The notes: generated by a model from the sequence alone, not told the origin. 32,000 nt of DNA from Candidatus Methylomirabilis limnetica (GCF_003044035.1 NZ_NVQC01000008.1:75890-107889), one strand, 5' to 3'; positions 3,640 through 27,028 are shown, numbered from the stretch's first letter. Made by a program: numbers and translations.

Positions 3640-4185
3640 CTACCTCAAGAGGCTCTCAACCAGTGTCCTCGAAGCCTTGTTGGCCCAGTCATGGTATCCA
3701 ATGTCTTTGGCGCGAATGATGCCTTGGCGGTCGATCAGGATCGAGACAGGAAGCCCGATAAGCCGGAACTTCCGACTGGCCTTCATATCAGTGTCGAGCG
3801 CTACGGGAAAGGTGAGGCGAAGCTCCTTAATGAAGTCGCGGATCTCTTGCTGTGCGTCCGGCTCGATGTTGACAGCGAGGATCTCCAACCCTTTTGCCTT
3901 GTACTCGGAGTAGACCTGCTGCATCGTCGGCATCTCTAGCCGGCAAGGGGGGCACCAGGTAGCCCAGAAGTTGATCAGCACAACCTTCTGGCCCCGAAAC
4001 TCCGAGAGCCGAACGGTGTTTCCCTCAAGCGTCTTCAGCGTAAAGTCAGGCGCGAAGTGTCCCTCTTCGGGTCGCACATCATTAGCCCATACGTCAGTTC
4101 CTCCTGGCGTGCCACCTATAACGAGTCCGAGAATGATGGAGATGATCGCTATCTGGGATAGTAAACAGCAGAGATAGCGTCTCAT
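3640..4185 (-). CDS. TlpA/ResA-family membrane-anchored thiol:disulfide oxidoreductase
   Basis: 181 aa. N-terminal TM anchor, and the thioredoxin-fold motif VVLINFWATWCPPCRLEMP (WCPPC). Confidence 0.85.
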   Translation of the reverse strand: MRRYLCCLLSQIAIISIILGLVIGGTPGGTDVWANDVRPEEGHFAPDFTLKTLEGNTVRLSEFRGQKVVLINFWATWCPPCRLEMPTMQQVYSEYKAKGLEILAVNIEPDAQQEIRDFIKELRLTFPVALDTDMKASRKFRLIGLPVSILIDRQGIIRAKDIGYHDWANKASRTLVESLLR

Positions 4186-4237
4186 ATTCCGGCCATTCCT
4201 TTCTTAGTAAGCAGTATGCAGCAGTCAGCGCTCAGTT

Positions 4238-4266
4238 GTAGGTCGGGTTAGCCCAGCGTAACCCGA
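4238..4266 (+). repeat. REP-like hairpin with GTAGG head (family A)
   Basis: GTAGG-TCGGGTTA-gcccagcg-TAACCCGA, a perfect 8-bp stem, in the divergent intergenic region. Confidence 0.5.
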
Positions 4267-4394
4267 CAACTCGGCCAGGGCGAAGGGGGTATCAGAAGCT
4301 GAATGCTGACCGCTCCCTCAGAGTGGCATTTCCATGCCCAGTGGTGCGGCGTCGCCTCATGGGATCTTGCCAAGCTTAAAACTACCGGAAAAAC

Positions 4395-4449
4395 CGCCGC
4401 AGGTCAAATCGTGATTGACATTAGGGGGTGAAACGATTGACCTGCGGCG
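4395..4449. promoter_or_regulatory. Long inverted repeat / candidate operator overlapping the crp-family gene promoter
   Basis: CGCCGCAGGTCAAaTCGT (4395-4412) pairs with ACGATTGACCTGCGGCG (4433-4449): 17 bp with a one-nucleotide bulge. GATTGAC occurs at 4413-4419 and 4435-4441, and once inverted (GTCAAaTC, 4403-4410). Confidence 0.4.
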
Positions 4450-4465
4450 TTCGTCCGCCTACAAT
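4437..4465 (+). promoter_or_regulatory. Putative sigma70 promoter of the Crp/Fnr-family gene
   Basis: TTGACC (4437-4442), an exact 17-nt spacer, TACAAT (4460-4465). This sits about 47 nt upstream of ATG 4513. Confidence 0.45.
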
Positions 4466-4512
4466 AAGACCGGCGTTCGGGACTTCCCCCGTTTCGTTAT
4501 CCCAGGGTAGCC

Positions 4513-5178
4513 ATGTTGCCAGAGCAGTTGAAGTCGATTCCGTATTTCCAGGACCTCGATGCGCGAGCACTGGAGGGTATCCGGGCTCACGCATTTGAGG
4601 TACGGTTGCAGAAGGGACACGTTCTCTTTACGGAGGGGGAGCCGGCCCAGGCGATGTACGTGATTCGGTCCGGTAAGGTCAAGATCTTCAAGCTGTCCCC
4701 CGACGGACGCGAGCAGGTCCTCCGGATTGCAGAGGCCGGAGATTGTTTCAATGAGGTCCCGATCTTCGATGGTGGGCCGAACCCCGCCAACGCCCAGGCG
4801 GTGGAGCCGGCGGCGCTCTGGGGCATCCGGCGGGAGGAGATGCGGCGCCTGGTAGAGGAGCACCCGGCGATCGCGATCGGCTTTCTCAAGGCGTTTGCGG
4901 GGAAGCTTCGCTACTTCACCCGCAAGGTGGAGGACCTGTCCTTCCGTAGCGTGACAAGCCGCGTGGCCAAGTTCCTCTTGGAGATGGCCGAGGATGACGG
5001 CAGAGGAGGTCTGCGCCTGAAGCAGCAGTTCACGCAACAGGAGATAGCGTCCGTTGTGGGAACGGCCCGAGAGATGATCGGCCGGGCCTTCAAGGCCCTG
5101 GAAAAGGAAGGAGCCATCAAGCTCGATCGCCACCAGGTCATCATCGTAAGCCGGGCTGCCATGATTCGCCTGCTCTGA
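4513..5178 (+). CDS. Crp/Fnr-family transcriptional regulator (effector domain plus C-terminal HTH)
   Basis: 221 aa. cNMP-binding-like beta-roll (FTEGEPAQAMYVIRSGKVKIFKLSPDGREQVL) and HTH QQEIASVVGTAREMIGRAFKALEKEGAI. There is no N-terminal Cys cluster, so it is not a classical [4Fe-4S] FNR. Confidence 0.9.
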   Translation: MLPEQLKSIPYFQDLDARALEGIRAHAFEVRLQKGHVLFTEGEPAQAMYVIRSGKVKIFKLSPDGREQVLRIAEAGDCFNEVPIFDGGPNPANAQAVEPAALWGIRREEMRRLVEEHPAIAIGFLKAFAGKLRYFTRKVEDLSFRSVTSRVAKFLLEMAEDDGRGGLRLKQQFTQQEIASVVGTAREMIGRAFKALEKEGAIKLDRHQVIIVSRAAMIRLL

Positions 5179-5300
5179 CCTCACCGTTGCCCTTCTTGTA
5201 ATGCGTGAGACTAAAGTCGCATACACCTCTGAATCACCCCCCTATGCTAGAATGGACGCTGAGCAAACAACAACCTGAGAAAAAAGGAGGCAAAAGACTT

Positions 5301-5915
5301 ATGACCAACGAGAGCAGTTGCCATGAAGGGCACGTCAGTCCAACGCCCGAGCCAAAGACCTGCGACACCCAATCGACGGGTACGCCAATGCCAGAGGTAC
5401 TTCGAGATCTACCCGATGATCGCGTGGTAATCCTGGATATTCGTGAACAGGTGCGGGGAGGCGAAGAGCCGTTTCAGAGGATCATGCAAACCGTCATGTC
5501 CCTCCGAGACGACCAGGTACTCAAGCTATGTAATATCTTCGAGCCGATACCGCTTTACGCTGCCTTGGCGCAACGGGGTCTCGCTCACTGGACGCAGCGG
5601 CGTGGCCCAGAAGATTGGTGCATCATGTTTTATCGAGCGGGGGCCGAGGCCGCGACCTCTCCGGCGTCCTGCACCTCGTCGAGGCCAGCGGAGCCTGTCG
5701 GGGACGCCATCGTTGTTGACGCCCGTGGACTAGAGCCACCACAGCCGATGGCGAAGATCCTGGAGAATCTCCCTCAGATTGCAGCGGGTGGAAAGATCCT
5801 GGCCATGACCGACCGGCGGCCGATGCTGCTCTACCCGAAGTTGGAGGAGCGGGGCTTCGTCTTCTCCACCGAGGAAACGACGCATGGCTGGTTCGAAACC
5901 CGGATCTGGAAGTAG
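5301..5915 (+). CDS. Protein with two tandem DUF2249-like domains and a Cys/His-containing N-terminus
   Basis: Start chosen at ATG 5301, preceded by AAAGGAGG; the track ORF starts at 5205. Domain 1 is VVILDIREQVRGGEEPFQRIMQTVMSL...LYAALAQRGLAHW. Domain 2 is IVVDARGLEPPQPMAKILENLPQIAAGGKILAMTDRRPMLLYPKLEERGFVF. Both match my memory of DUF2249 (PF10006). The N-terminus carries SSCHEGH...KTCD. Confidence 0.75.
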   Translation: MTNESSCHEGHVSPTPEPKTCDTQSTGTPMPEVLRDLPDDRVVILDIREQVRGGEEPFQRIMQTVMSLRDDQVLKLCNIFEPIPLYAALAQRGLAHWTQRRGPEDWCIMFYRAGAEAATSPASCTSSRPAEPVGDAIVVDARGLEPPQPMAKILENLPQIAAGGKILAMTDRRPMLLYPKLEERGFVFSTEETTHGWFETRIWK

Positions 5916-7209
5916 CGCCCCGGCCAGGCTGCCATCCCTCTGGGTGCCGCTACGCTATTTTGTGACGGCTCAGGTAGCCTTCGTGACCGCCATGCTCTGG
6001 GCGCCATGGCAGGTCAGCAATCTGCTGGACTTTTACTATCAGGGGCATGACCTCGCCCTCACCCATCTGCTGACTCTTGGGTGGATCACGATGACGATCA
6101 TGGGGGCGTCGTTCCAGTTGGTCCCGGTCGCCCTGGAGACCACGCTGTGGAGCGAGCGCCTGGCCTGCTGGCAGTACTGGATTATGCTGCTCGGTGTCGC
6201 GATTATGGTGAGCCATTTCTGGATCGGTCATCACGAGGGTTTGGCCTTCGGCGCCGGTCTGGTGCTGGTTGCCGTGACACTTTTCCTGATCAATATGGGG
6301 CGCACACTGTGGCAGCTCCCCCACTGGGACATCGTGGGGCGACACATGGCGGCTGCGCTCGTCTACCTGGCCTCCACCGTGGTCATGGGAAACCTGATGG
6401 CGCTCGATAAGATTTTCGACTTCTTAGGAGGTCAGGTCCTGACGACGATACACGCCCACGCCCACCTGGCCGGCATCGGCTGGGTCACCATGATGATCTT
6501 CGGGGCGAGCTATAAACTGATCCCCATGTTCAGCCTGAGTGAGCTTCGCGATGAGCGGCTGGCCTACTGGGAGTTCTGGCTGCTCCACGTCGGTCTAGTC
6601 GGCCTCTACATGACGCTCCTGCTGCAAAGTCCGTGGGCCACGCTGTTCGCTCTCCTGATCGCCACAGCGGTGGGCCTGTTCCTCTGGACGATGCGCGATG
6701 TCATGCGGGTACGCCGGCGTCCGCGATTGGACTGGGGGCTGCGGCATACTATGAGCGCCATGACCACGCTCGCGATCGTGACGATCCTGGGTCTATGGCT
6801 GAGTACCGGTTGGCTCCCGAGCGATGAGTTTGCCGCCCGGCTGGCCTTTGGCTATGGGGTCCTGGCACTCCTGGGCTGGGTCTCCGCCATGATCATCGGC
6901 CTGATGTATAAGATCATCCCGTTCCTGGTTTGGCACCACCGTTACAGCGATCTCATAGGACTGCGGTCTGTTCCAGCCGCCGCCCAGATTCTTGGTGAGT
7001 CAACGCCTCGGATGGAGTTCTGGCTGCTCTATGCGGGTATCGCGATGACCGTTACCGGAGTGATCTTCACGTCCTGGCTGCTCGTGCAGGTGGGTACGCT
7101 CGTGTTGGCACTGGCGGGTCTGACGTTCGCCGTCGCCGTCTGTCGGATCTACTGCCATCTGGTTCCACGCCTGACGCCGCTTCCGGAGGCGCAGATTGTG
7201 GGAACATAA
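5884..7209 (+). CDS. Polytopic (about 12 TM) His-rich membrane protein, heme-copper-oxidase subunit I-like / NnrS-like class; function unknown
   Basis: 441 aa, overlapping the upstream gene by 32 nt. A motif recurs three times: LTHLLTLGWITMTIMGASFQLVPV, HAHLAGIGWVTMMIFGASYKLIPMF and GVLALLGWVSAMIIGLMYKIIPFL. His clusters are HFWIGHHEG, IHAHAHLAG and VWHHRY. The exact start is uncertain. Confidence 0.8.
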   Translation: MAGSKPGSGSSAPARLPSLWVPLRYFVTAQVAFVTAMLWAPWQVSNLLDFYYQGHDLALTHLLTLGWITMTIMGASFQLVPVALETTLWSERLACWQYWIMLLGVAIMVSHFWIGHHEGLAFGAGLVLVAVTLFLINMGRTLWQLPHWDIVGRHMAAALVYLASTVVMGNLMALDKIFDFLGGQVLTTIHAHAHLAGIGWVTMMIFGASYKLIPMFSLSELRDERLAYWEFWLLHVGLVGLYMTLLLQSPWATLFALLIATAVGLFLWTMRDVMRVRRRPRLDWGLRHTMSAMTTLAIVTILGLWLSTGWLPSDEFAARLAFGYGVLALLGWVSAMIIGLMYKIIPFLVWHHRYSDLIGLRSVPAAAQILGESTPRMEFWLLYAGIAMTVTGVIFTSWLLVQVGTLVLALAGLTFAVAVCRIYCHLVPRLTPLPEAQIVGT

Positions 7210-7232
7210 GACCCGCAGTTGATCCGCTTGGA

Positions 7233-7403
7233 GAATGACCGACCTCGCACAAGCTACGGGGTATCGTCTTCTGTTCTGGCCCGTCATTCCGTGCTTGACA
7301 CGCCTGCCCCGTACTTGATGCGGGGGAATCCAGTCGGGTCCTCTGGATACCGGCTTCCGCCGGTATGACGAACTCGGGGCAAGCCGCGGGGAATGAACCC
7401 CCC
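7233..7403 (-). repeat. 171-bp structured intergenic repeat, copy 1 (inverted relative to copy 2 at 14486-14637)
   Basis: My by-eye alignment of the reverse complement to 14486-14637 shows long identical runs, for example CGTCATACCGGCGGA, GCCGGTATCCAGAGG and GTGTCAAGCACGGAATGACGGGCCAGAACAGAAGACGATAC. The same DNA produces the shared peptide VKHGMTGQNRRRYP in two track ORFs. Confidence 0.85.
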
Positions 7404-7451
7404 TCAGTAGGTTCAAGAAGTGAAGGTACTAAAGGTACATGAAAAGGAGGC

Positions 7452-7796
7452 ATGATGACGGAACCAGAAACATCACCAGTGACTGAAGAGCAGATCTACA
7501 CCACGCTCCGAAAGCTCATTGATCCGGAATTAGGAGTCAACATCGTGGATCTGGGCCTCGTCTACAACGTACAGATTGATGATGGCGAGGTCACCGTCCG
7601 TATGACCCTTACCACACGCGGCTGCCCCCTGCATGGCACTTTCGTCCAGGCGATCGAGCGCAGCCTCAATGAGCTGGACGGCGTGACCGGCGTGACCGTC
7701 GATGTCGTGTGGGAACCCGCCTGGAATCCGGACATGATCACCCCTGAGGGGAAGCAAACGATGTCCAGCGCTGGACGTGGTGGGCCCGCATGGTGA
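7452..7796 (+). CDS. DUF59 / MIP18-family Fe-S cluster assembly protein (SufT/PaaD-like)
   Basis: 114 aa. SD AGGAGG. IYTTLRKLIDPELGVNIVDLGLVYNVQIDDGEVTVRMTLTTRGCPLHG is the canonical DUF59 core with its conserved Cys. Confidence 0.85.
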   Translation: MMTEPETSPVTEEQIYTTLRKLIDPELGVNIVDLGLVYNVQIDDGEVTVRMTLTTRGCPLHGTFVQAIERSLNELDGVTGVTVDVVWEPAWNPDMITPEGKQTMSSAGRGGPAW

Positions 7797-8866
7797 CGCC
7801 AGCGTTGACGGTCGATACGGTTATCGCGGCGCTTCGGCAGATAAAGTACCCGGGGATGAGTCGCGACATCGTGTCTATCGGTGTGGTGAAGGATACGCAA
7901 CTGGATGGCGCTGACGTGTACCTCGACCTCCAGGTCCCGACGGAGGATCGCGAGGTCATCGCCAAGGTGGAGGCTGCGGTTCGCGAGACGCTCGCCCGCG
8001 TGCCTGGGATCGGTGATATGCGGATCCAGATCGGCCCACGCCCTGCATCTCCGGATTCCGCGCCCGGACCGTCTCCGCTCCCTGGCGTTCGGCGTATCAT
8101 CGCCGTCGCTTCAGGTAAAGGCGGTGTGGGCAAGACGACTGTATCCGTCAACCTGGCCTTGGCCCTGGCGCAGTCGGGGGCTGCGGTGGGCTTGCTGGAT
8201 GCCGACATCTACGGGCCGAATGTTCCGCGGATGCTGGGCGAGCCGGGCCGTCCCAAGGCGGATGAGGGCAAGATTGTCCCGCTTGTGCGATACGGCCTGA
8301 AGGTGATATCGGTGGGGTATCTGCTGGGGGATCGGTCGCCGATAATCTGGCGTGGGCCTTTGGTGGCCCAGGCCTTGCGCCAACTCCTGCATGATGTACG
8401 GTGGGGCGAGCTGGACTACCTGATCGTAGATCTTCCCCCAGGGACGGGGGACGCCCAGTTGACCCTCGTACAGTCCGTACCGTTGACCGGTGGGGTCATC
8501 GTGACTACCCCCTCCGCCGTGGCCCTGATGGACGCAGAGAAAGGCCTGCAGATGTTTCGTGAGGCCCGCGTCCCGATTCTGGGCATTGTGGAGAACATGA
8601 GCTACTTTATCTGTCCCCACTGCCAGGGAGAAACCGACATCTTCAGCCGGGGCGGTGGACGTACGGTGAGTGAATCGCTTGGAGTGTCTTTCCTGGGGGA
8701 GATCCCCATCAACCCGGCTATCCGCGAGGGCGGGGATATCGGCGCGCCCGTTGTCGTGGCGAAGCCGGAGTCCCCCGAAGCGCTGATCTTCCGCAATCTC
8801 GCGGAAAAGGTTCGCCTGGAGGCCGAGGCTGCCGCCGTGGCGATGCCTCAGGTGATCATCCGCTAA
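7790..8866 (+). CDS. apbC: Mrp/ApbC/NBP35-family Fe-S cluster carrier ATPase with N-terminal DUF59 domain
   Basis: 358 aa, overlapping the upstream stop by 7 nt. Deviant Walker A IAVASGKGGVGKTT, and the CPHC cluster-ligand motif in ENMSYFICPHCQGETDIF. Confidence 0.9.
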   Translation: MVTPALTVDTVIAALRQIKYPGMSRDIVSIGVVKDTQLDGADVYLDLQVPTEDREVIAKVEAAVRETLARVPGIGDMRIQIGPRPASPDSAPGPSPLPGVRRIIAVASGKGGVGKTTVSVNLALALAQSGAAVGLLDADIYGPNVPRMLGEPGRPKADEGKIVPLVRYGLKVISVGYLLGDRSPIIWRGPLVAQALRQLLHDVRWGELDYLIVDLPPGTGDAQLTLVQSVPLTGGVIVTTPSAVALMDAEKGLQMFREARVPILGIVENMSYFICPHCQGETDIFSRGGGRTVSESLGVSFLGEIPINPAIREGGDIGAPVVVAKPESPEALIFRNLAEKVRLEAEAAAVAMPQVIIR

Positions 8867-8905
8867 TAACCAATAACTCTGTATCTTTCCAAGGAGGAAG
8901 TCACG

Positions 8906-9790
8906 ATGTCAGCAAGCTATGCAACAACCGTCGATGCCCGCATCCTACCGGTCCCGCAGAAGCACCCAACCATCTTCCGTGCCTTCGATGGGCTGGCGGT
9001 CGGGACTGCCATGCTCTTGGTCAACGACCATGATCCCAAGCCGCTTTACTACACATTCGCCGCAGAGCGGGCTGGGGAGTTCGAATGGCGCTATCTGGAG
9101 AAGGGTCCAGAGGTGTGGCAGGTGGAGATCAGCCGGATTGCCGATGCCACAGGCAGACAGGCGCCCCCTGATACAATGGGCTGTGGTGGACTCCACGCGC
9201 ACCACGAACATCACGATCATCACGCGCACCAGCATGCCCACACCGGTTCTCCGACCCAGATCCTCAAGGACGAACATACCCTGATCCTTGAGGCTTTGGA
9301 TGGGGTGGAGCGCAAGCTCGCCGCATTAGAGTCCGGCGCCGCCCCGGATCGAGCCTATTTCGAGAAGGCGGTAAGGTTTATCCGAACCTTCGCTGACGAG
9401 TGCCATCACGGCAAGGAGGAGAACCTGCTGTTCAAGACCATGGTGGACCGCGGCTTTCCATTGCAAGGGGGACCTATCGCGGTCATGCTGTCGGAGCACG
9501 AAGCCGGCCGCGGATACATCCGTGAGATGGCCGAGGCCTCGGCGAGCGTGGTGCAGGATAAGGCTGCGACAGAGAAGATCATCCGGAACGGGCGTGCTTA
9601 CATCCAGATGCTGCGGCCTCACATCGATAAGGAGAACATGATCCTGTATGCGATGGCGGACAATATGTTTAGCCCTGAGGACCAGGCGGAGATGGGAAAG
9701 GCGTTCGAGCGCTTCGAGACTGAAAAGATCGGCGCGAACGTCCATGAGGAGATGATGACACTACAGGCGGAGTTGAAGGCGGGCGCCTAA
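8906..9790 (+). CDS. DUF2249-like domain / His-rich tract / hemerythrin-like (HHE) di-iron domain fusion protein
   Basis: 294 aa. SD AAGGAGGAAG. N-terminal region KHPTIFRAFDGLAVGTAMLLVNDHDPKPLYYTFAAERAGEFEWRYLEKGPEVWQVEI. His tract HAHHEHHDHHAHQHAH. The C-terminal half has ILKDEHTLI...ECHHGKEENLLF...MLSEHEAGRGYI...HIDKENMILY, which are hemerythrin cation-binding His/Glu motifs. Confidence 0.85.
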   Translation: MSASYATTVDARILPVPQKHPTIFRAFDGLAVGTAMLLVNDHDPKPLYYTFAAERAGEFEWRYLEKGPEVWQVEISRIADATGRQAPPDTMGCGGLHAHHEHHDHHAHQHAHTGSPTQILKDEHTLILEALDGVERKLAALESGAAPDRAYFEKAVRFIRTFADECHHGKEENLLFKTMVDRGFPLQGGPIAVMLSEHEAGRGYIREMAEASASVVQDKAATEKIIRNGRAYIQMLRPHIDKENMILYAMADNMFSPEDQAEMGKAFERFETEKIGANVHEEMMTLQAELKAGA

Positions 9791-9806
9791 TAAAGGCATA
9801 GTCGGA

Positions 9807-9855
9807 GCATCCCAGCCGTTCGTCCTGAGCATATCGAAGGAAACGGCTGGGATGC
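9807..9855 (+). terminator. Strong hairpin closing the cluster (no T-tract; REP-like core CCTGAGC...TCGAAGG)
   Basis: GCATCCCAGCCGTT (9807-9820) pairs perfectly (14 bp) with AACGGCTGGGATGC (9842-9855), with a 21-nt loop. It starts 17 nt after the stop codon. Confidence 0.5.
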
Positions 9856-9893
9856 TCAGGATATGCTTATCGAATCAGATGGTTCCTCGCTGT

Positions 9894-9924
9894 TTGGAGT
9901 TGGTATAACCTTGGAGTATACTCC
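9894..9924 (+). promoter_or_regulatory. Putative sigma70 promoter with overlapping 12-nt palindrome in an AT-rich spacer
   Basis: TTGGAG (9894-9899), a 17-nt spacer, TATACT (9917-9922). The perfect palindrome GGAGTATACTCC (9913-9924) covers the -10. Confidence 0.35.
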
Positions 9925-9983
9925 ATCGAGTCCGTCCATCTAATAACCGTTAGGAAGCCACTTTAACCACGAGGAGAAATACT

Positions 9984-10055
9984 GTGCAGGGATATGTTGC
10001 TTTAATTGGTATGATCGTCCTTATACTACTGTATGTGTGGTTCCAGTTCGGGTGA
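9984..10055 (+). CDS. Candidate 23-aa hydrophobic single-TM peptide (speculative)
   Basis: GTG 9984 is preceded by GAGGAG (9971-9976). It encodes VQGYVALIGMIVLILLYVWFQFG then a stop. It lies about 55 nt downstream of the predicted TSS of the 9894-9922 promoter. It is too short for the ORF track. Confidence 0.25.
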   Translation: MQGYVALIGMIVLILLYVWFQFG

Positions 10056-10208
10056 CCAAAAAGTCTTTATGATAACGATGCTTCTGGCGGAAGCGTATTG
10101 ATCGTCTTCGGCACATTGTATCTAAAACGTGGAAAGCAAGTTACAATCAGATTGGCTCAGATTTGGCCCATCACATTACGCCGCCGCAACGCACCCCGTG
10201 AAAAAACA

Positions 10209-10415
10209 TCACGCCGCCTTTCCCGCTTCCTTGACTTCATCGACCTGATGAGGCTCGATCGCCGTCTCCTCAACCAGCTTGCCGTCACGCATCACGACCA
10301 CGGCGGTGCCGGTTTGTCTCGCGATTTCGCGCGCTCGCCGTCCAGCCCTTAACAGCGCGGCGGGCGCAGCTTGCATGTCTGCATCCGGCAGCTTCGAAAC
10401 CAGCGACTTGCTCAT
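10209..10415 (-). CDS. 68-aa partner protein of the zeta-like kinase (candidate antitoxin/regulator)
   Basis: MSKSLVSKLPDADMQAAPAALLRAGRRAREIARQTGTAVVVMRDGKLVEE... Strong SD GAAGGAGGAAACCC lies before the ATG. An ATGA start/stop overlap joins it to the zeta-like gene. The longer track ORF 10209-10844 is out of frame with the zeta gene over most of its length. Confidence 0.6.
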   Translation of the reverse strand: MSKSLVSKLPDADMQAAPAALLRAGRRAREIARQTGTAVVVMRDGKLVEETAIEPHQVDEVKEAGKAA

Positions 10416-10939
10416 GGGTTTCCTCCTTCGTCGTTCAGGATGGGGGTATCGCCGCTGTTGTCGAACCACTGCCAGTAATCGACGCGGTGGCGATAAATAT
10501 CGTGAAAATTGCGCCGTCCGGCTGCAAAGCGGCGGCGAATGATCTCCGGCGGCACATCGTGCCCGCCCTGCCGCACCCGCATTGCTACGCGTGCGATCGC
10601 CTCTTCTGGGGTGGCCAACGACAGGAAAATCAGCTTCACCGCAAAGCCCGCCGCCCGCCAGCCGGTGATCATGCGCGCATAGGTCAGGCCTGACAGGGTT
10701 GTCTCGAAGGCGAAGCTGCGGCCTTCGGCAGCGTGGCGCGCGATTTCTTCCAGCATCAGGCGTCCGGCGCGGAACGCCACCGTTTCCGGCTGGAATGGCG
10801 ACAGCCCGGCGGCGATCAGGTCGGCGTTGACGAACACCGGGCAACTAGCTTCCTTGGGTAGAAACTCGCGAGCGAAGGTTGTCTTGCCCGCCCCGTTGGG
10901 GCCGGCGATGATGACGATCTTCCTGCCGCCCGTACTCAT
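10412..10939 (-). CDS. Zeta-toxin-family P-loop kinase-like protein (COG4185-type ATPase)
   Basis: 175 aa. Walker A IIAGPNGAGKTTFAREF, then VNADLIA, FAFETTLSG and RVAMRVRQGGHDVPPEIIRRRF, which are typical of the short zeta/PezT-like family. SD GGGGAGG. Confidence 0.85.
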   Translation of the reverse strand: MSTGGRKIVIIAGPNGAGKTTFAREFLPKEASCPVFVNADLIAAGLSPFQPETVAFRAGRLMLEEIARHAAEGRSFAFETTLSGLTYARMITGWRAAGFAVKLIFLSLATPEEAIARVAMRVRQGGHDVPPEIIRRRFAAGRRNFHDIYRHRVDYWQWFDNSGDTPILNDEGGNP

Positions 10940-11094
10940 AGGGCGACCTCCCCGCTCATCAGGCGCGGCAGCAGCAGGTCGCGGGCGGCGCGAAGCTTTT
11001 GATTCTGCCTATAAAGGCCGAAGTCCAGGTCGGTCTGGTCGAGCTGTAACAGCTCCTGCAGCAGGGTCTTCAGCTTGTCGTATTTCTGGCTCAT
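10936..11094 (-). pseudogene. 52-codon chimeric ORF: N-terminus of a helicase-associated DNA methyltransferase-type gene fused in frame to an HsdS-like C-terminal tail
   Basis: MSQKYDKLKTLLQELLQLDQTDLDFGLYR resembles the N-termini (..LFQLD..DLDFGIYRIMN..) that I recall from large R-M-type methyltransferase/helicase genes. ARDLLLPRLMSGEVAL resembles the canonical end of type I specificity subunits. The stop overlaps the zeta start (ATGA). The assignment is from memory only. Confidence 0.4.
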
Positions 11095-11128
11095 CGTGGA
11101 TCCCGTTCGTTGTTGGTCCTGCTCGCGT

Positions 11129-12376
11129 TCATGTCAGCTCCCACAGAGCGCGGATGGGGACCGCGAAGAGTCCCTCACCAAAGCCCAGGCTGGCCTCACC
11201 GTCATACAACACCACGCCGGCGGCAAAGCGCTTGCCTGCAGCCTCCCGCAGCTTGCGCAAGCCGCGAAAATCCGAGGCCATCACCGTCGCAGCGGCTTTC
11301 ACTTCCACCCCGACCAACTCACGACCGCCACGCTCCAGCACCAGATCGACCTCCACGCCATCCTTGTCGCGGAAGTGGTGGAAGCGGATGTCGTCGTCGC
11401 GCCAGCTCGCCTGTCGGCGCAGTTCCTGGTACACAAACGTTTCCAACAATTGCCCAAGGGTGCTACGGTCCAGCCACAGCAACTCGGCGTCAAGGCCAAG
11501 CAGAGCGCAGGCCACCCCGGTGTCCCCAAGATGCAACTTTGGCGTCTTGATGAGGCGGCTCAGCCGGTTGCTGTGCCAGGGCGCAAGTTGTTCGAGCAGA
11601 AAGACCCGCTCCAGCAGGGTGACATAGTCCTTGATGGTTGGGCGGCTCAACTGGAAGGGTGCCGCGAGATCGCTCACGTTCAGTAGCCGAGCCGTCTGGC
11701 CTGCCGCCAGCGCCAGCAGCCGTGGCAGTGCATCGAGCGAGGCGATGCGCGCCAGGTCGCGCACGTCGCGCTGGACCAGCGTCTCGATGTAGTCGCGGTA
11801 CCATGTGGCACGGCGGCGCGGGATGGCGCGGGCCAGCGCTGCGGGATATCCGCCTGCCGCGATGCGTGCCGCCAGTTCTTTACCCAGCCGCCCGTAGTTG
11901 CGTGCCTTGAAGCGACCCTCTAACAGCGCGTTGAGGAATCCCGGTGGGCGACCGGCCAGTTCGCACTGGGCCAGCGGGTGTAGCCGCAGAATCTCCATTC
12001 TTCCGGCCAGGGAATCGGCGAGCTTAGGAGCCAGCAGCACGTTTGCCGACCCCGTGAGCAGAAATCGACCGGGGCGGCGTCCGCGATCCACGGCCGCCTT
12101 GATGGCGGTGAACAAGGTGGGAACCCGCTGGACCTCGTCCAGAATGGCGTGATCGGGCAGGTCGGCAACGAAACCAACGGGATCGGCAATAGCCGCGCCG
12201 AGAGCCACCGCGTCGTCGAAACTGAAGTAGGCGTAGCCTCTGGACTCGGCGATCCCTTGCGCGAGGGTCGTCTTGCCACACTGCCGCGGTCCGTGGATCA
12301 GGACAACGGGCGTGTCGGCCAGCGCGTTGATCAGGGCCGAGACGGCAAAACGGGGATGAAGGTGGTTTGTGCTCAT
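11129..12376 (-). CDS. AAA-family ATPase with C-terminal DUF4143-like domain
   Basis: Start chosen at MSTNHLHPRF (ATG 12376); the track ORF starts 26 codons earlier. Walker A LIHGPRQCGKTTLAQ, Walker B HAILDEVQRVP, and a C-terminal segment HFRDKDGVEVDLVLE typical of AAA_14/DUF4143 proteins. Confidence 0.85.
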   Translation of the reverse strand: MSTNHLHPRFAVSALINALADTPVVLIHGPRQCGKTTLAQGIAESRGYAYFSFDDAVALGAAIADPVGFVADLPDHAILDEVQRVPTLFTAIKAAVDRGRRPGRFLLTGSANVLLAPKLADSLAGRMEILRLHPLAQCELAGRPPGFLNALLEGRFKARNYGRLGKELAARIAAGGYPAALARAIPRRRATWYRDYIETLVQRDVRDLARIASLDALPRLLALAAGQTARLLNVSDLAAPFQLSRPTIKDYVTLLERVFLLEQLAPWHSNRLSRLIKTPKLHLGDTGVACALLGLDAELLWLDRSTLGQLLETFVYQELRRQASWRDDDIRFHHFRDKDGVEVDLVLERGGRELVGVEVKAAATVMASDFRGLRKLREAAGKRFAAGVVLYDGEASLGFGEGLFAVPIRALWELT

Positions 12377-12531
12377 GGCGGTCAAAAGTAACTCAAAACG
12401 TCGGCTGATTGCAAGGATTATATGCGTCTTATTGTAAGGATGAAGAGGAGCCAAGCGGCCGCCAGGTCGGAAGTTGGCCTAGCAACGCCGGGGAGTGCTC
12501 TCCAGCCTTTCGAGTCCGGCTCCTGCTCGCC

Positions 12532-14946: not shown

Positions 14947-16116
14947 ATGGGAACGGGCAACCAATCGAAGTCCGGATTCGTCAGGAGCGGGATAATCATT
15001 TTGGGCGGCGTGCTCCTTGGAGTGGGCCTCTGGCCGATAAGCGGGGGGGTTATCAGTTTCGCTCAAGGTCAAAAGTCAACACCTTACGCGTTGAAGCTGC
15101 CACCTGGTGTCCTCGAGCCAATCATTCCGGAAGACAACCCGCTTTCAGTAGAAAAGGTGGCATTGGGTAAGACGCTCTATTTTGATAAACGTCTTTCCGT
15201 GGATAACACAATTAGCTGCGCTGGCTGCCACGACCCCAGGCTTGGATTCGCGGATGGGAAAAAGGTTGCGGAGGGGATCGAACAGAAAAAAGGGGCCAGG
15301 AGCAGCCCCACGACGTTAAACACCGCCTTTCTTGATACCCAGTTCTGGGATGGCCGGGCTTCGAGCCTGGAAGAACAAGCCAAAGGACCTCTTGTGAACC
15401 CCGTTGAGATGGGGATGCCATCGCATGATGTCCTTGTGACCAAACTTCGGAAGATTCCGGAGTACCGCCGGGGATTCCTGGAGGTCTTTGGGACAGAGGA
15501 CTTTACTATCGATCATGTGGCGAAAGCCATCGCATCCTTCGAGCGGACCCTTAATACCTTTAACTCCCCCTTCGATCGCTTCATTGGCGGCGATAAAGGT
15601 GCCATTAGTCCATCTGCGCAGAGGGGATGGGAGCTTTTTCAGGGGAAGGCCCGCTGCCTCACCTGCCATGAGTTCAACACCGCTTACCCCTTCTTCACCG
15701 ACAATAAGTTCCACAACATCGGGGTGGCCACGAAGGCGGTGAACTCTGAAGTCCTGGCCAGGAGGGCGGCAGTGGAAACGGATGTGGCGAGGCTGACCCG
15801 CGAGCCAGGGGCTTCCGAATTGGGCCGGTATCTCGTCACACAACAGCCTAAGGACATCGGGGCTTTTAAAACCCCCGGGCTCAGGGAGATCGCGCACACA
15901 GCCCCATACATGCACGACGGGAGTGAACCGACACTGGATACCATGATCGATTTCTACGATAAGGGCGGAATTCCCAATCCGAATCTGGATGGCGGCATGC
16001 GACCTCTTAGGCTGACCTTAGAGGAGAGGAAGGATCTTGTAGAGTTTCTGAAGGCCCTGACAAGCGACGATCTGGCCCGTTTCGTTAAGGATCTCGATGG
16101 CATAGTGGGTCGATAG
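14947..16116 (+). CDS. Di-heme cytochrome c peroxidase (CCP/MauG family)
   Basis: 389 aa. N-terminal membrane/signal segment, CAGCH and CLTCH heme motifs, plus FWDGRASSLEEQAKGPLVNPVEMG and GAFKTPGLREIAHTAPYMHDGS family blocks. Confidence 0.9.
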   Translation: MGTGNQSKSGFVRSGIIILGGVLLGVGLWPISGGVISFAQGQKSTPYALKLPPGVLEPIIPEDNPLSVEKVALGKTLYFDKRLSVDNTISCAGCHDPRLGFADGKKVAEGIEQKKGARSSPTTLNTAFLDTQFWDGRASSLEEQAKGPLVNPVEMGMPSHDVLVTKLRKIPEYRRGFLEVFGTEDFTIDHVAKAIASFERTLNTFNSPFDRFIGGDKGAISPSAQRGWELFQGKARCLTCHEFNTAYPFFTDNKFHNIGVATKAVNSEVLARRAAVETDVARLTREPGASELGRYLVTQQPKDIGAFKTPGLREIAHTAPYMHDGSEPTLDTMIDFYDKGGIPNPNLDGGMRPLRLTLEERKDLVEFLKALTSDDLARFVKDLDGIVGR

Positions 16117-16134
16117 TTCAAGGAGGAGGGACAG

Positions 16135-17244
16135 ATGAAGCGACAGACGCTACGTCCAGAGGAACGGAAGCAGTTCTTCACATCTCTTCGAAAGATGAGC
16201 CGACGGGAGTTCTTTTCTACCGCCGGGAAGGTGGCCGCCATGGCTGCGGCCTCGGACCTGGTGATCAGATTCGGGAACCACATCATCTCCAACTCGCCGC
16301 ACTCCTTTCAGCCCGTGGAACTGGCCTATGGCGCCGAGAAGTTTACCTTCGCCTACGTGTCCGACACTCACCTCCTTGCCAAAGGAATGACGCACCGGTT
16401 CGCGAAGGCTGCATTGAAGGCTGTCAGAGACGTTAACGCCATGAGTCCCCAGCCGGACTTCGTTCTTTTCGGGGGGGACCTGGCCCAGCTTGGCCAGGCC
16501 GAGGAGCTGAAGCTCGGGAAAGAGATCCTCGATGAGCTGAAGCCGAAGCGTCACATGATGGTCGGGGAGCACGACTGGTACTTGGATATGGGCGAGAAGT
16601 GGCGCGAGCTGTTCGGCGACCCGTGGTACGCCTTCGACCACAAGGGGGTCCATTTCGTCGTCCTGAACAGCGTCATCGTGGAGGACTACTGGACGGCCCC
16701 CAAGATGAAGCCGATGGAGCGGATGCTCTTCATGGCTCAGCTCGACAACCCGAAGGGGAAGCCGTTCACAGTCGGTGAGGAGCAGCGGGACTGGCTCCAG
16801 AAGAACCTGGCCAACGTGGACAAAGGGACGCCCGTCGTGATTTTTTCCCACTCGCCCCTGTATAAGTACTACAAGCCCTGGAACTTTTGGACCGACGATG
16901 CCGAGGAGGTGCAGAAGCTCCTGGCGCCCTTTACGTCTGTGACGGTGATTCACGCCCACACCCACCAGGTCCTGACGAACAGAATCGGCAACATCCACTT
17001 CCACGGCGTGCTCTCCACGGCTTGGCCGTGGCCATACGCTCCCGAGGGGCTCCCAGGGCTCACCGTGCAGATGGACCGGGCTGATCCGTTCAACCAGTTC
17101 GATGCCTGTGGATGGGGGACGGTGGATGTTCTCTCGACCGGACGGGCCAATAAGAGCTATAAACTGTGGGACCGGAACCCGATGAATGTGACCGCTGCTC
17201 AGCTTGAATCCGGCAAAGCGGCCGCCCCAGGGCCTTCGTATTAG
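16135..17244 (+). CDS. Tat-exported calcineurin-like metallophosphoesterase with atypical motif III
   Basis: 369 aa. SD AAGGAGGAGGG. Twin-arginine signal SRREFFSTAGKVAAMAAAS. MPE motifs are YVSDTHL, FGGDLAQ, VGEHDW (GEHD where GNHD/E is expected), FSHSPL and IHAHTH. Confidence 0.85.
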   Translation: MKRQTLRPEERKQFFTSLRKMSRREFFSTAGKVAAMAAASDLVIRFGNHIISNSPHSFQPVELAYGAEKFTFAYVSDTHLLAKGMTHRFAKAALKAVRDVNAMSPQPDFVLFGGDLAQLGQAEELKLGKEILDELKPKRHMMVGEHDWYLDMGEKWRELFGDPWYAFDHKGVHFVVLNSVIVEDYWTAPKMKPMERMLFMAQLDNPKGKPFTVGEEQRDWLQKNLANVDKGTPVVIFSHSPLYKYYKPWNFWTDDAEEVQKLLAPFTSVTVIHAHTHQVLTNRIGNIHFHGVLSTAWPWPYAPEGLPGLTVQMDRADPFNQFDACGWGTVDVLSTGRANKSYKLWDRNPMNVTAAQLESGKAAAPGPSY

Positions 17245-17267
17245 GATTGAGGCAGAGGAGAAAAGCA

Positions 17268-18008
17268 ATGCAAACGCGAGTCGTTGTCAGGGTGCTCATC
17301 GTAGGTGTGTTCATGGCTGTGGCTATCGGTCCCTTGACTGCCGACCAGGTCAAAGCCACGGATGCTGCCACCCCTTCGTCCTCTCAGATAGCAGCCGCAG
17401 CTTCAGGAGAGGCATGGGTGACGAAGACGGTTACGGCATGCGATAAGAAGAAGACGGTCATCGTCGAGGGGTACCGTGCAGGAGAGGTGCTGCCCCAGGA
17501 GAAGGCCCGGCAGGTGGCGAAGCTGCTCATGGCGCTGATGAAGTACTGTGACTACCAGGTCATTGCCAGACTCCCCCAGCAGGAGACGACGGTTTATCTC
17601 TCCATCGAGGGCCAGCCGTTCGTTGAGATGCAAGAAGTCGAACAGAAGTTGCCCATCCTGCTTGTCCAGGGGGTGCTGCCCACAGAGCGGGAAAAGCGCG
17701 TTTGGGCCGCCGAGCAGAAACGGATGATCGAAGAAGGCTATAAACTCTTTCACAGCTCGGCGCTGGGGACCAACGGCATTTCCTGTGACATGTGTCATCC
17801 GGATGCCTCGAACACGCATCCGGAGACCTATCCCAAGTTCCAGACGCAGCTAAAGACGGTCGCCCTCCTCAGGGACCAGATCAATTGGTGCATCGAAAAT
17901 CCGTTGGAGGGTAAGAAGCTCTCTGGCGACGATCCCGAGATGAAAGCATTGGAGGCCTATATCTACTCTGCGCGGTCAGGGAAAAGCCTGGAGCCTGGAA
18001 AGCACTAA
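17268..18008 (+). CDS. Periplasmic mono-heme c-type cytochrome, SoxA/TsdA-like C-terminal domain
   Basis: Start at ATG 17268 after GAGGAG; the track ORF uses TTG 17247. It has a signal peptide and a single CDMCH. RDQINWCIENPLEGKKLSGDDPEMKALEAYI resembles the INxC...L...E..AL.AY block I recall from SoxA-type cytochromes. Confidence 0.8.
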   Translation: MQTRVVVRVLIVGVFMAVAIGPLTADQVKATDAATPSSSQIAAAASGEAWVTKTVTACDKKKTVIVEGYRAGEVLPQEKARQVAKLLMALMKYCDYQVIARLPQQETTVYLSIEGQPFVEMQEVEQKLPILLVQGVLPTEREKRVWAAEQKRMIEEGYKLFHSSALGTNGISCDMCHPDASNTHPETYPKFQTQLKTVALLRDQINWCIENPLEGKKLSGDDPEMKALEAYIYSARSGKSLEPGKH

Positions 18009-18078
18009 GACCCGGGAAGTTATCCGACAGGGTTCGTTTTTCGCGAAGTAATCTCGACGTCGTTAGTTCACACTTCCC

Positions 18079-18116
18079 CACCTGTGAGGACCCCCGTTCT
18101 CACAGGTGTATTTTTT
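18079..18116 (+). terminator. Rho-independent terminator of the ccp operon
   Basis: CACCTGTGAG (18079-18088) pairs with CTCACAGGTG (18099-18108), followed by TATTTTTT. Confidence 0.8.
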
Positions 18117-18162
18117 CAATGGGCAAGAAGGGTCGATTGCTAAAGAGATAGTGCAAGCTGCG

Positions 18163-18187
18163 GTAGGGGCGCCCCTTGTGGGTGCCC
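18163..18187 (+). repeat. REP-like hairpin with GTAGG head (family B)
   Basis: GTAGGGGCGCCCCTTGTGGGTGCCC. It is near-identical to 3609-3633, including the flanking ..CTCAT. Confidence 0.5.
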
Positions 18188-18501
18188 TCATGCGAGGTGC
18201 GGCGGAGCCTGATTGAGGACTTAGCGGGTAGGGGGCTTACATGAGGGGTGAAGAAGCCTTTCAGGCTGCTCCCTTTTCGCCTTTTTCACCTTAGTAGAGA
18301 GTGCTATACTGCGTATGCTATGTTTGGGGTTGAAAGAGATGGGGTTGACGGGGATAGCGTCTATTGCGTCCAGAGCGTCGGTGTGTCTGTTGCGTTGATT
18401 GGGTCGCTGAGTCGGTTGCGCTCCACGCGACGACGCTAAAGACGCGATGACGCCATAGCTTGGTGGCGTGGCGAAATCAATCGTTACGGCAGAGGTGAGT
18501 T

Positions 18502-19062
18502 TTGGCCGATCACGGCACTGCGGGAGAGGATAAGGAAGATCGTTTGGTCGTGACGCCGGAGGAGAGCGACGCGACCCTTTGGTCTCGACGGGATTTTTTT
18601 TGCCTCGCAGGGTGGGGCGGGATAGCGGGGGCGCTCGGTGTCGGCGGCTTGGCGTTCGGACGCTTGATGTTCCCCAGAGTGCTCTTCGAGCCATTAGCGG
18701 TCTTCAAGGCCGGCCTGCCGGAGGAGTACCCGATCGGAACCGTCAGCGAACGGTGGAAGCAGGAGGAGCGCGTGTGGATCGTCCACGAGCCTGACGGATT
18801 CTACGCGCTCTCCGCGATCTGCACGCATCTCGGTTGTACCCCAAACTGGTTGAATGCGGAGGACAAGTTCAAATGCCCCTGCCACGGCAGCGGTTTCCGT
18901 AGGACTGGGCTCAACTTCGAGGGTCCCGCCCCTCGGCCGCTGGAGCGAGTTAAGATTGCTCTGGGTGACGACGGGCAACTTGTGATCGATAAGGGCGTTC
19001 AGTTCCGCTTTGAGAGAGGAGACTGGACCAGGCCTGGGGCTTTTCTCAAGCTCAAGGTCTAG
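18502..19062 (+). CDS. Rieske [2Fe-2S] subunit of a cytochrome bc-type complex (Tat signal)
   Basis: 186 aa. TTG start after AGAGGTGAG, SRRDFF twin-arginine motif, and the cluster boxes CTHLGC and CPCHGS. Confidence 0.9.
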   Translation: MADHGTAGEDKEDRLVVTPEESDATLWSRRDFFCLAGWGGIAGALGVGGLAFGRLMFPRVLFEPLAVFKAGLPEEYPIGTVSERWKQEERVWIVHEPDGFYALSAICTHLGCTPNWLNAEDKFKCPCHGSGFRRTGLNFEGPAPRPLERVKIALGDDGQLVIDKGVQFRFERGDWTRPGAFLKLKV

Positions 19063-19084
19063 CTGAGAGAGGATCAGAACGCGG

Positions 19085-19855
19085 ATGCCCAACCTGAACG
19101 AGTTGAAGAAAAAGATCGTTGAGTCGCAGCTATGGCGCTCGATGTTTCGTCACGATTATCTGGACACCCCACGCAACCGGGTGCTGCAGATCATGGCGAA
19201 TGTCTGGCTCCACCTGCACCCTCCTAAGATCCGACGCCACGCCCTCAGAGTTCGCTATACCTGGTGTATGGGTGGCATCACCTTCCTGGTGTTCCTGGTA
19301 ACGGTGGTGACCGGTGTCATCCTGATGTTCTACTATCGCCCGGTAGCTGAGTACGCCTATGCTGACATGAAATACCTGCAGCACGATGTCCCGTTTGGCA
19401 TGATCATGCGCAACATGCATCGATGGGCGGCGCATGCCATGGTGATCACGATCTGGCTGCACATGTTTCGAGTCTTTATGACCGGCTCATACAAACCGCC
19501 GAGGGAATTCAACTGGGTTGTGGGGGTCGTACTGCTTACCATCACGCTGCTCCTGAGTTTTACCGGCTACCTCCTGCCATGGGACCAGCTTTCGATCTGG
19601 GCCGTAACGGTCGGAACCAACATGGCCCGCGCCACCCCACTTCTTGGGAGTGAGGGTCCATTTGGCGAAGTGGTCGGCGTTACCTCGCGGTATGACGCCA
19701 GGTCCTTCTTGCTTGGTGGCACCCTCGTTGGACCTCCTGCGCTCCTTAGATTTTACGTCCTGCACTGTATCTTGTTACCCATCCTGGCCGGCCTCCTCAT
19801 GATCGTACATTTCTGGAGGATCAGGAAAGATGGGGGGGTCTCGGGTCCGTTATAG
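19085..19855 (+). CDS. Cytochrome b, b6-type split N-terminal subunit
   Basis: 256 aa. It has the cytochrome b N-terminal domain pattern ([23 protein letters not shown]...[13 protein letters not shown]). Its length and the following separate subunit-IV gene indicate a split b6-like organisation. Confidence 0.9.
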
Positions 19856-19886
19856 CGATGAATGAAGAGTAGCGACGAGCGAAACG

Positions 19887-20696: not shown

Positions 20697-20722
20697 CGTT
20701 ACTGTTCGGTTGAGGTTGCCTG

Positions 20723-23449: not shown

Positions 23450-23489
23450 CCCGTCCATAGCGTCTATTGCGGCAGCGTCCATTTCCTCT

Positions 23490-23530
23490 ACGCAACAGAC
23501 GCAACAACGCAACAGACGCAATGACGCAAC
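23490..23530 (+). repeat. Tandem ACGCAAY array (five units, period 8-9 nt; 2.4 copies of a 17-mer)
   Basis: ACGCAAC ag ACGCAAC a ACGCAAC ag ACGCAAT g ACGCAAC, with unit starts at 23490, 23499, 23507, 23516 and 23524. It lies between the octaheme stop (23449) and the cupredoxin start (23554). Confidence 0.9.
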
Positions 23531-23553
23531 AAGAGAAAAGGAGGCGATACTCC

Positions 23554-24276: not shown

Positions 24277-24343
24277 CGTGCGGCGTACAGCGTGCCGCTC
24301 CACGCACGACGCTGAACGCAATAACGTGGGGGAAAAAATACAA

Positions 24344-27007: not shown

Positions 27008-27028
27008 ACCAGGGAGAAGCAGGTAGAT

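Follow-up and report, generated by a model that had tools for sequence, protein, structure and literature searches.

Two proteins built on the DUF2249 domain, DrpA and DrpB, have been characterized genetically in Thermus (Chahlafi et al., 2018; PMC6282519), and clear homologues of both are encoded in a six-gene cluster of Candidatus Methylomirabilis limnetica (NC10), which is the subject of this analysis. The cluster lies at 4513-9790 of a 32,000-nucleotide stretch of the genome (hereafter the window). In Thermus, expression of drp requires the Crp-family activator DnrT, loss of DrpB leads to constitutive activity of Pnar and Pdnr, and in the drpAB double mutant the dependence on nitrate is lost and NarG is abundant, with nitrate-reductase activity at about 10% (PMC6282519). 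DrpB is partly membrane-associated without a transmembrane (TM) segment; drpAB was treated as bicistronic, and the genes downstream were unmentioned (PMC6282519). Each of the four DUF2249 genes of Haloferax mediterranei responds to denitrification with a 3- to 8-log2-fold induction, and one of them codes for a fusion of an Mrp-like NTPase to DUF2249 within the nar operon (PMC11218638). According to the same paper, an association of DUF2249 with homologues of the heme-copper oxidases (HCO) had been noted computationally by Pei et al. (2014; Protein Sci 23:1220).

The component families, the genetics of two of the components and, by the account in PMC11218638, the association described in 2014 are already known. 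An earlier note on this DNA, made from the sequence alone, had stated that no biochemical function was known for DUF2249 or for the membrane family of the cluster, and that the ensemble might be an undescribed system. The statement on DUF2249 overlooks the Thermus genetics (PMC6282519), DrpA and DrpB being clear homologues of the N-terminal domain of gene 6 and of gene 2, respectively; to call the membrane family undescribed would be an overstatement, HCO homologues being covered by Pei et al. as cited in PMC11218638. What appears to be unreported in the literature searched is the four-gene module described below as a unit, the DUF59 protein as an obligatory partner of its membrane protein, in some cases fused to it, the extension of the Thermus drp locus by a membrane protein and a DUF59 protein, and an NC10-specific fusion of DrpA to hemerythrin.

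The perception and survival of N-oxides are only partly understood in many denitrifiers and in the NC10 bacteria, which live on nitric oxide (NO). To our knowledge, Thermus and the haloarchaea are without the classical sensors NarXL, NorR and NsrR. The module ties together DrpA and DrpB, a family of copper-less oxidase homologues of about 900 clusters, the denitrification-induced DUF2249 genes of haloarchaea and a dedicated DUF59 partner, and it can be tested in cultured organisms (Thermus, Rhizobium etli and Haloferax).

A conserved four-gene module

Gene neighbourhoods were compared across 80 loci from NC10, Verrucomicrobiota, Acidobacteriota, a 'Deltaproteobacteria' metagenome-assembled genome and Binatia. 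Neighbours were found with hidden Markov models built from the domains of the window, and adjacency was counted on domain coordinates. A DUF2249 protein was encoded directly upstream of the membrane-protein gene in 73/76 loci (with two domains in 52, one in 20 and three in 1), and a DUF59 protein was encoded directly on its downstream side in 70/73. In 43 of 70 loci one more DUF2249 gene, with a single domain of the DrpA type, followed within 1.2 kb. The consistent exceptions to this layout were NC10 paralogues (L008, L009 and L085). With high confidence, the locus is the Methylomirabilis version of a conserved module made of a DrpB-like protein with two DUF2249 domains, a 12-TM protein of the HCO fold, a DUF59 protein and a DrpA-like DUF2249 protein. 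The additions to this module in NC10, assigned with equal confidence, are the insertion of an Mrp/ApbC gene, the fusion of DrpA to hemerythrin through a His-rich linker and a DnrT-like Crp gene in front.

All six open reading frames (ORFs) of the cluster were present on the + strand, co-directional as the earlier note had described them. They encode a Crp/Fnr-family regulator (gene 1, 4513-5178), a DrpB-like protein with two DUF2249 domains (gene 2, 5301-5915), the HCO homologue (gene 3, 5884-7209), a stand-alone DUF59 (FeS_assembly_P) protein (gene 4, 7452-7796), an Mrp/ApbC-type Fe-S carrier ATPase (gene 5, 7790-8866) and a protein in which a DrpA-type DUF2249 domain is joined by a His-rich linker to a RIC/YtfE-like hemerythrin (gene 6, 8906-9790); the assignments are based on ORFs and Pfam, and for gene 5 also on NCBIfam. 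The two overlaps that had been noted were found, of 32 nt between genes 2 and 3 (5884-5915) and of 7 nt between genes 4 and 5 (7790-7796). Matches to PF10006, PF01883, PF10609, PF01814 and PF00115 were all above their gathering thresholds, and the three DUF2249 domains were located as proposed, two in gene 2 and one fused to hemerythrin. The expected conservation of the neighbourhood held for the four-gene core. As a conserved unit the six-gene set was rejected: of the 80 loci, 4 had the Mrp ATPase and about 12 a hemerythrin, and the Crp gene, variable in position, was within 5 kb in 19 of the 41 loci with full flanks.

The megaplasmids of Thermus thermophilus carry narGHJI-narK-narT, drpA (DUF2249, 72 aa), drpB (DUF1858 and two DUF2249 domains), a 4-TM HCO homologue (144 aa, with a weak match to helix X of COX1), a protoglobin-domain protein, a homologue of the membrane protein of the window (383 aa, E = 2.5e-37) and a DUF59 gene overlapping the latter. 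In both organisms the drp-type genes are linked to a Crp-family regulator, and an HCO homologue and DUF59 stand in the same gene string. The window differs from Thermus in its DrpA-hemerythrin fusion, in a DrpB without DUF1858, in gene order (DrpB-like first, DrpA-like last) and in having no adjoining nar operon; Thermus has a protoglobin and the 4-TM HCO homologue where the window has hemerythrin and Mrp. In plasmid pTthSNM6-6b (L086; NZ_AP025614.1, 82704-86502) the genes after drpAB are spaced by 0-50 nt. A second stretch of the same sequence (L089; NZ_AP025614.1, 66994-72677) contains dnrS (GAF) and dnrT (Crp) and, after them in the same orientation, feoA, feoB and a gene for a hemerythrin-domain protein; no similarity was found between this hemerythrin and that of gene 6.

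The link to NO and N-oxide metabolism that the earlier note had proposed is borne out by the surroundings of the module in other lineages, bacterial and archaeal, beginning with the nar genes of Thermus. On p42f of R. etli, the module (DUF2249, HCO homologue, two DUF2249 domains, DUF59) lies between norECBQD-hemN and nnrS-nirK-nirV-Crp/Fnr-nnrU. It is found near nirK in Haloferax gibbonsii, and in a verrucomicrobial genome it adjoins YgbA_NO, NirK-like, NirV-like, SCO1 and Crp genes. Across the sample, nirK was present within 8 kb in 21/80 loci, against about 0.3% expected for a single-copy gene by a rough estimate of our own. The literature search found nothing on R. etli RHE_PF00520-523 or Sinorhizobium meliloti SMa1255-1262. 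In S. meliloti strains the match to the R. etli membrane protein is confined to residues 151-450 of the latter (NC_003037.1, S. meliloti 1021 pSymA, 688234-689145), in a region where no gene is annotated; this may be a truncated copy or a pseudogene.

The encoded proteins

The 441-residue product of gene 3 matched COX1 (PF00115) with 60.3 bits (cutoff 34.8), at profile positions 282-399 only. Its AlphaFold2 (AF2) model has 12 TM helices (pLDDT 84, pTM 0.85), and Foldseek aligned the model with cbb3 CcoN (E = 1e-7), NorB (E = 1.7e-6) and also subunit I of the aa3, bo3 and ba3 oxidases, with TM-scores of 0.65-0.73. Three four-helix units that are homologous to one another (HHalign between pairs, E = 1e-14 to 1e-16) make up the protein and share the register xxHxxxxGWxxxxxxGxxYxxxP, in which H61, H194 and V326 are equivalent, as are L59, H192 and Y324. 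Among 21 homologues (38-84% identity) H61, H192, H194 and Y324 were invariant and H425 nearly so, and the equivalents of H61 and H192 are retained in the Thermus and R. etli homologues. The distribution of Lys and Arg (13 inside vs 1 outside) gives an N-in/C-in topology. At E <= 1e-30 the family comprises 897 clusters (50% identity).

Gene 3 shares with CcoN and NorB the fold (TM-score 0.65-0.70), a helix-X-like HxH motif, a helix-VI-like His and the N-in/C-in topology. The family profile places H192 and H194 on the helix-X ligands of CcoN, H345 (haem b3) and H347 (haem b), and H61 matches the helix-VI CuB ligand H207 by spacing; the position of the helix-II haem ligand is occupied by L59 (repeat 1) or Y324 (repeat 3). 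The correspondence differs, however, in being rotated by one repeat, with repeats 1 and 2 of gene 3 matching HCO repeats 2 and 3, and the helix-VII His-His pair is missing: the CuB pair in the 'GPHHLHY' segment of CcoN aligns with 'gmvvhFw' (Met/Val). Because two of the three CuB/FeB histidines are missing, gene 3 is predicted from its sequence to have no CuB/FeB binuclear centre and to be one that cannot reduce O2 or NO. Nor is a cytochrome c, CuA, subunit II, CcoO or NorC partner encoded in the unit. A functional oxidase or NO reductase (NOR) was rejected for gene 3 on these grounds, only H61, H192 and H194 being invariant of the six histidines required (two ligands of the low-spin haem, one of the high-spin haem and three of CuB/FeB) and an electron-entry subunit being absent. 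In functional oxidases, the pocket of the binuclear centre is lined jointly by a helix-VI His from one unit and by the first His of helix X from the unit that follows. H61 and H192 are expected, by analogy, to face a common pocket, which would fit a single b-type haem site towards the periplasmic side, where the haems of HCOs lie; H194 and Y324 may form a second site specific to the NC10/Verrucomicrobia clade.

Gene 3 also resembles the HCO-homology (HCOH) families of Pei et al. (2014), NnrS included, as they are portrayed in PMC11218638: both have 12 TM helices in three four-helix units and a genomic association with denitrification genes and DUF2249, and in both the CuB site is missing and about two conserved His could bind one haem. 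It differs in the third invariant His (H194) and Y324 of the NC10/Verrucomicrobia clade and in the absence of a Pfam NnrS match. PF05940, which the earlier note had listed among the profiles to be run, gave no match for this protein even at E <= 1, and membership of NnrS was rejected; R. etli encodes a separate NnrS adjoining the module. The summary of the HCOH families given in PMC11218638 does not mention an obligatory DUF59 partner, fusions to it or the identity of the DUF2249 partners with DrpA and DrpB. NC10 genomes carry in addition a paralogue of the membrane protein (at L008, L009 and L085; about 42-45% identity) that stands alone, without DUF2249 or DUF59 neighbours. Precomputed PF05940 matches were seen only for some of the more distant NC10 paralogues.

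The association with iron-centre proteins that had been noted for this cluster was confirmed and is near-obligatory for DUF59, which in some genomes is fused to the membrane protein. Gene 4 scored 75 bits against DUF59, has the conserved cysteine of the TTxGCP motif and reached 95 in the SUF_assoc NCBIfam (cutoff 143). Four of the six unusually long members of the membrane family are fusions with a C-terminal DUF59 (P0313, P0359, P0378 and P0367). The other two are P0337, which carries DUF3108, and P0244 (862 aa), which matches the family profile in two stretches and has no Pfam match. Because natural fusions occur and the topology is N-in/C-in, the sequences argue for a complex of the membrane protein and DUF59 on the cytoplasmic face. 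Gene 5 matched PF10609 (ParA/NUBPL) with 335 bits and, at its N-terminus, DUF59 (PF01883) with 40 bits; it has a deviant Walker A P-loop (GKGGVGKT) and a cluster-binding CxxC (CPHC), and its ApbC score (NF008669, 331.7 bits) is just under the cutoff of 348. The architecture of gene 5 (DUF59, P-loop and CPHC) is that of Mrp/ApbC/NBP35, and gene 4, stand-alone with a conserved Cys, is of the SufT/PaaD/CIA2 type. Both nevertheless fall below the equivalog cutoffs of these families, and the DUF59 found here is dedicated to a putative membrane haemoprotein and not to the Suf or Paa systems.

In gene 2, two copies of PF10006 were detected (104 bits), and the second is weakly TusA-like, with DARGLEPPQP replacing the TusA Cys motif. 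The protein is collinear with Thermus DrpB over both DUF2249 domains (32% identity, E = 1e-24); the DUF1858 domain of DrpB is absent from gene 2 in the M. limnetica genome, whereas a sister NC10 clade has DUF1858 and two DUF2249 domains. Gene 6, identical (100%) to CLG94_00965 of Ca. M. limnetica, is composed of DUF2249 (aa 1-77, 96 bits), the His-rich linker (aa ~93-113) and hemerythrin (aa 116-294; PF01814, 71 bits). Its N-terminal domain is 57% identical to Thermus DrpA over 69 aa (full length; E = 4e-31) and contains the DrpA signature KHP...NDHDPKPLYY. The DUF2249 domains fall into positional classes that differ in conserved motifs, and it is the class found after DUF59 (KH...NDHDPxPLYYQF) that is fused to hemerythrin here. 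A sequence search of solved structures with DUF2249 gave only spurious P450 matches (E ~0.06). The linker (9185-9245) is Cys/His-rich (GCGGLHAHHEHHDHHAHQHAH), joins the DrpA-type domain to hemerythrin and varies in length among orthologues; stand-alone hemerythrins that are 66-72% identical to the C-terminal half of gene 6 likewise begin with a His-rich stretch.

The best solved relative of the hemerythrin half of gene 6 was YtfE (E = 0.002), and the aligned stretch holds the HxxxEE, SEH and HxxxEN motifs common to YtfE and gene 6; the His/Glu positions of these motifs are invariant or nearly so in the family alignment. Gene 6 has the RIC/YtfE layout, a small N-terminal alpha/beta domain followed by a hemerythrin-like four-helix di-iron domain. 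It differs in that the N-terminal domain is DUF2249 of the DrpA type and not ScdA_N, and its score in the YtfE NCBIfam is 25 bits (cutoff 254). The structural comparison was not significant: with the AF2 model (pLDDT 76; 66-78 in the DUF2249 half), Foldseek returned nothing with E < 0.3, the weak matches being to the hemerythrin of FBXL5 and to a SirA-like protein.

Gene 1 encodes 221 aa with cNMP_binding (92 bits) and HTH_Crp_2 (59 bits) domains, both above the gathering thresholds. Of three regulators compared, Thermus DnrT was the closest (35% identity, E = 3e-35), the one at the nnrR position in R. etli being 24% and a verrucomicrobial Crp 27% identical; orthologues within NC10 are 80-94% identical. 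The protein has no N-terminal extension or Cys cluster, its single Cys being C78. An Fnr-type [4Fe-4S] sensor of O2 was rejected for want of such a cluster and with a score of 52.7 in the Fnr NCBIfam (cutoff 228). The loci contained 44 Crp genes, 24 of them with a DUF2249 gene of their own just upstream.

Proposed function and competing explanations

We tentatively read the module as a membrane haemoprotein complex responsive to NO or N-oxides, in which DUF2249 proteins relay the signal to a DnrT-like Crp regulator and DUF59 and Mrp maintain an iron centre, and consider this proposal slightly more apt to be wrong than right. Gene 3 would bind b-type haem through the putative H61/H192 pair towards the periplasmic side, and this haem and the di-iron hemerythrin would be the binding sites of membrane-soluble NO (or O2). 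On the cytoplasmic face, where DUF59 would be in complex with the membrane protein, the DUF2249 proteins would dock on conserved 'SER..WQ' loops (TM2-3 and TM6-7) and would modulate the activity of the Crp-family regulator, as in the genetics of DrpA and DrpB in Thermus. The regulator would drive the module from the promoter with the GTGA-N8-TC[G/A]C box described below, and DUF59 and Mrp would supply or maintain an iron or Fe-S centre for the complex or for neighbouring respiratory enzymes. In a host whose metabolism centres on NO as an intermediate, the module would act as a sensor and protector in NO homeostasis.

A broader proposal, which we regard as unlikely although worth stating, is that DrpB, the HCO-fold haemoprotein, DUF59 and DrpA represent a class of membrane-bound NO/O2 signal transduction not recognised before, in which a degenerate oxidase subunit is the receptor and DUF2249 proteins of the TusA fold pass the signal on by switching activators of the Crp family, for example DnrT. 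Such a class, if real, would span Thermus, rhizobia, haloarchaea, Verrucomicrobia and NC10, and the 'nitrate sensor' phenotypes of Thermus drpAB would report on the whole six-gene unit; were the membrane protein to prove an NO-binding receptor, it would illustrate the reuse of a respiratory enzyme fold in a sensor.

Several points weigh against the signalling complex proposed for the Methylomirabilis locus. There are no nir, nor or nod genes within the window, and N-oxide genes are also missing from the vicinity of some other loci (L084). Other lineages do not always have the Crp gene next to the module, and the operator-like box is kept among four close relatives only. The Thermus authors proposed periplasmic sensing of nitrate by DrpA and not sensing of NO (PMC6282519). 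Because the Thermus drp mutants are cassette insertions and the downstream genes are only 0-50 nt apart, the mutants could be polar on the downstream HCO-homologue and DUF59 genes, and it may be ambiguous which Thermus protein causes which phenotype; the drpAB phenotypes deserve another look with such polarity in mind. The haem, metal, ligand-binding and interaction roles of the membrane family are predictions. Finally, a DUF59 that is universally present and a nitrate reductase that is poorly active in spite of abundant NarG fit maturation or repair at least as well as signalling.

Maturation or repair is central to the main rival explanation, in which there is no signalling at all and the module protects or rebuilds iron centres: an NnrS-like membrane haemoprotein would act with DUF59, Mrp, DUF2249 and the RIC-like hemerythrin to remove NO from, or rebuild, the Fe-S and iron centres of membrane-bound respiratory enzymes, and the regulatory phenotypes of Thermus would be indirect effects of accumulated NO or nitrite or of inactive nitrate reductase. 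It would account for a DUF59 gene that adjoins the membrane gene in nearly all loci and is fused to it in several genomes, for Mrp/ApbC here and at the Sulfotelmatobacter locus, for the Mrp-like NTPase-DUF2249 fusion of the Haloferax nar operon (PMC11218638), for a hemerythrin closest to YtfE/RIC, for the poorly active NarG of the Thermus double mutant (PMC6282519), for feoAB and hemerythrin genes after dnrST and for nnrS next to the module in R. etli. The single drpA and drpB mutants, however, alter promoter activity even aerobically and without nitrate, when damage by NO is unexpected (PMC6282519). Most loci are without Mrp and hemerythrin, the DUF2249 domains have no TusA cysteine and no evident catalytic residues, and DUF2249 genes are often paired with Crp genes. 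We take this explanation to be possible but doubtful. The inactive NarG (PMC6282519) would equally suit an assembly factor for HCO-type or other respiratory metalloenzymes (NOR or NO dismutase (NOD), cbb3, Nar), with gene 3 as a scaffold or surrogate subunit and DUF59 and Mrp delivering iron or Fe-S, and so would an HCO fold without a catalytic site, the adjoining nor genes in R. etli and nar genes in Thermus, and ctaA/ctaB and respiratory complexes further downstream in the window. This is an improbable role, given that the adjoining enzyme varies by lineage (Nar, NirK, Nor or none), leaving no single client, that hemerythrin and protoglobin, accessory domains that bind gas and can be exchanged for one another, would not be expected in an assembly factor, and that NAR1 is a nitrate-respiring model strain (PMC6282519), no nor genes being present in the Thermus stretches examined.

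A new kind of NO- or O2-consuming enzyme, a haem-only relative of the HCOs that receives electrons from cytoplasmic partners, is highly improbable. The HCO/NOR fold, the proximal-His equivalent H192 and the distal H61 would suit it, electrons might enter through a second haem held by H194/Y324, which are specific to the clade, and the host organism depends on the turnover of NO. Against such an enzyme, gene 3 lacks two of the three CuB/FeB ligands, the neighbourhood encodes neither a cytochrome c nor a quinol-site or subunit II/NorC partner, and the partners that are encoded are small non-redox domains; Methylomirabilis already has dedicated NOD/NOR enzymes.

Control elements and surrounding genes

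A sigma-70-like promoter of the Crp gene was located at 4437-4465 on the + strand (TTGACC-17-TACAAT, 10/12 consensus matches). A 13-bp perfect inverted repeat (4395-4407 / 4437-4449; CGCCGCAGGTCAA ... TTGACCTGCGGCG, spacer of 29 nt) overlaps its -35 hexamer with the right arm and may serve as an operator or in autoregulation. In the closest relatives (L002 and L083, M. oxyfera among them) both arms (CAGGTCAA/TTGACCTG) are kept, with a spacer of different length, and all 7 of the NC10 sequences aligned share TTGACCTG without change and have a -10-like hexamer, either TACAAT or TAGAAT.

Gene 2 starts at ATG 5301, preceded by AAGGAGG at 5284-5290; GTG 5205, further upstream, is a less likely start. 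The gap of 122 nt between the Crp gene and gene 2 has promoter-like elements of its own. Alignment of close relatives revealed in it, at 5204-5221 on the + strand, a box CGTGAGACTAAAGTC[G/A]CA with a Crp-like arrangement of half-sites (GTGA-N8-TC[G/A]C), about 27 nt 5' of a -10-like TAGAAT (5248-5253). The box is identical in the window, L001, L002 and L083, while the flanking bases vary, and it occurs once in the window (0.03 expected). This pattern suggests a candidate Crp operator belonging to a second, separately controlled promoter for genes 2-6.

A gap of 242 nt (7210-7451) is left untranslated between the membrane-protein and DUF59 genes. The corresponding gap is about 60-215 nt in other NC10 loci, and in most other lineages the two genes abut or overlap. 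The gap folds no better than shuffled sequence (z = -0.9), and an Rfam search of 4000-10300 gave no match at E <= 1; a riboswitch or non-coding RNA in the intergenic gaps was rejected on these results. The hairpin closing the unit, which had been put at 14 bp, is real and stronger than claimed: arms of 25 nt (9796-9820 / 9842-9866, + strand, 88% complementary) form a stem-loop at 9796-9866 with a perfect 16-bp core (9805-9820 / 9842-9857) and a folding energy of -45.6 kcal/mol (z = -7.7), and 0/200 shuffles folded as well. Because the hairpin has no U-tract, it is not called by the consensus terminator scan.

The flanks of the cluster are unrelated to it and partly on the opposite strand, with genes for a porin and a TlpA-like thioredoxin upstream and for a zeta-toxin-like kinase, an AAA ATPase and Amt downstream. 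In M. oxyfera all six genes recur among similar neighbours (porin, redoxin and Amt). Just past the cluster, 10412-12454 (- strand) encodes the zeta-toxin-like kinase (175 aa) and an AAA_14 and DUF4143 ATPase (441 aa); this DNA looks variable, and possibly mobile, because M. oxyfera has a Usp gene at the equivalent position. Respiratory genes occupy 14947-30247, downstream of the cluster. Among them are two di-haem cytochrome c peroxidases (14947-16116, + strand, and 27101-28120, - strand), Rieske, cytochrome b and cytochrome b C-terminal genes (18502-20696), and CtaA and CtaB (28374-30247). A SoxA/TsdA-like cytochrome c, a multihaem cytochrome c of 908 aa and PPDK are also encoded downstream.

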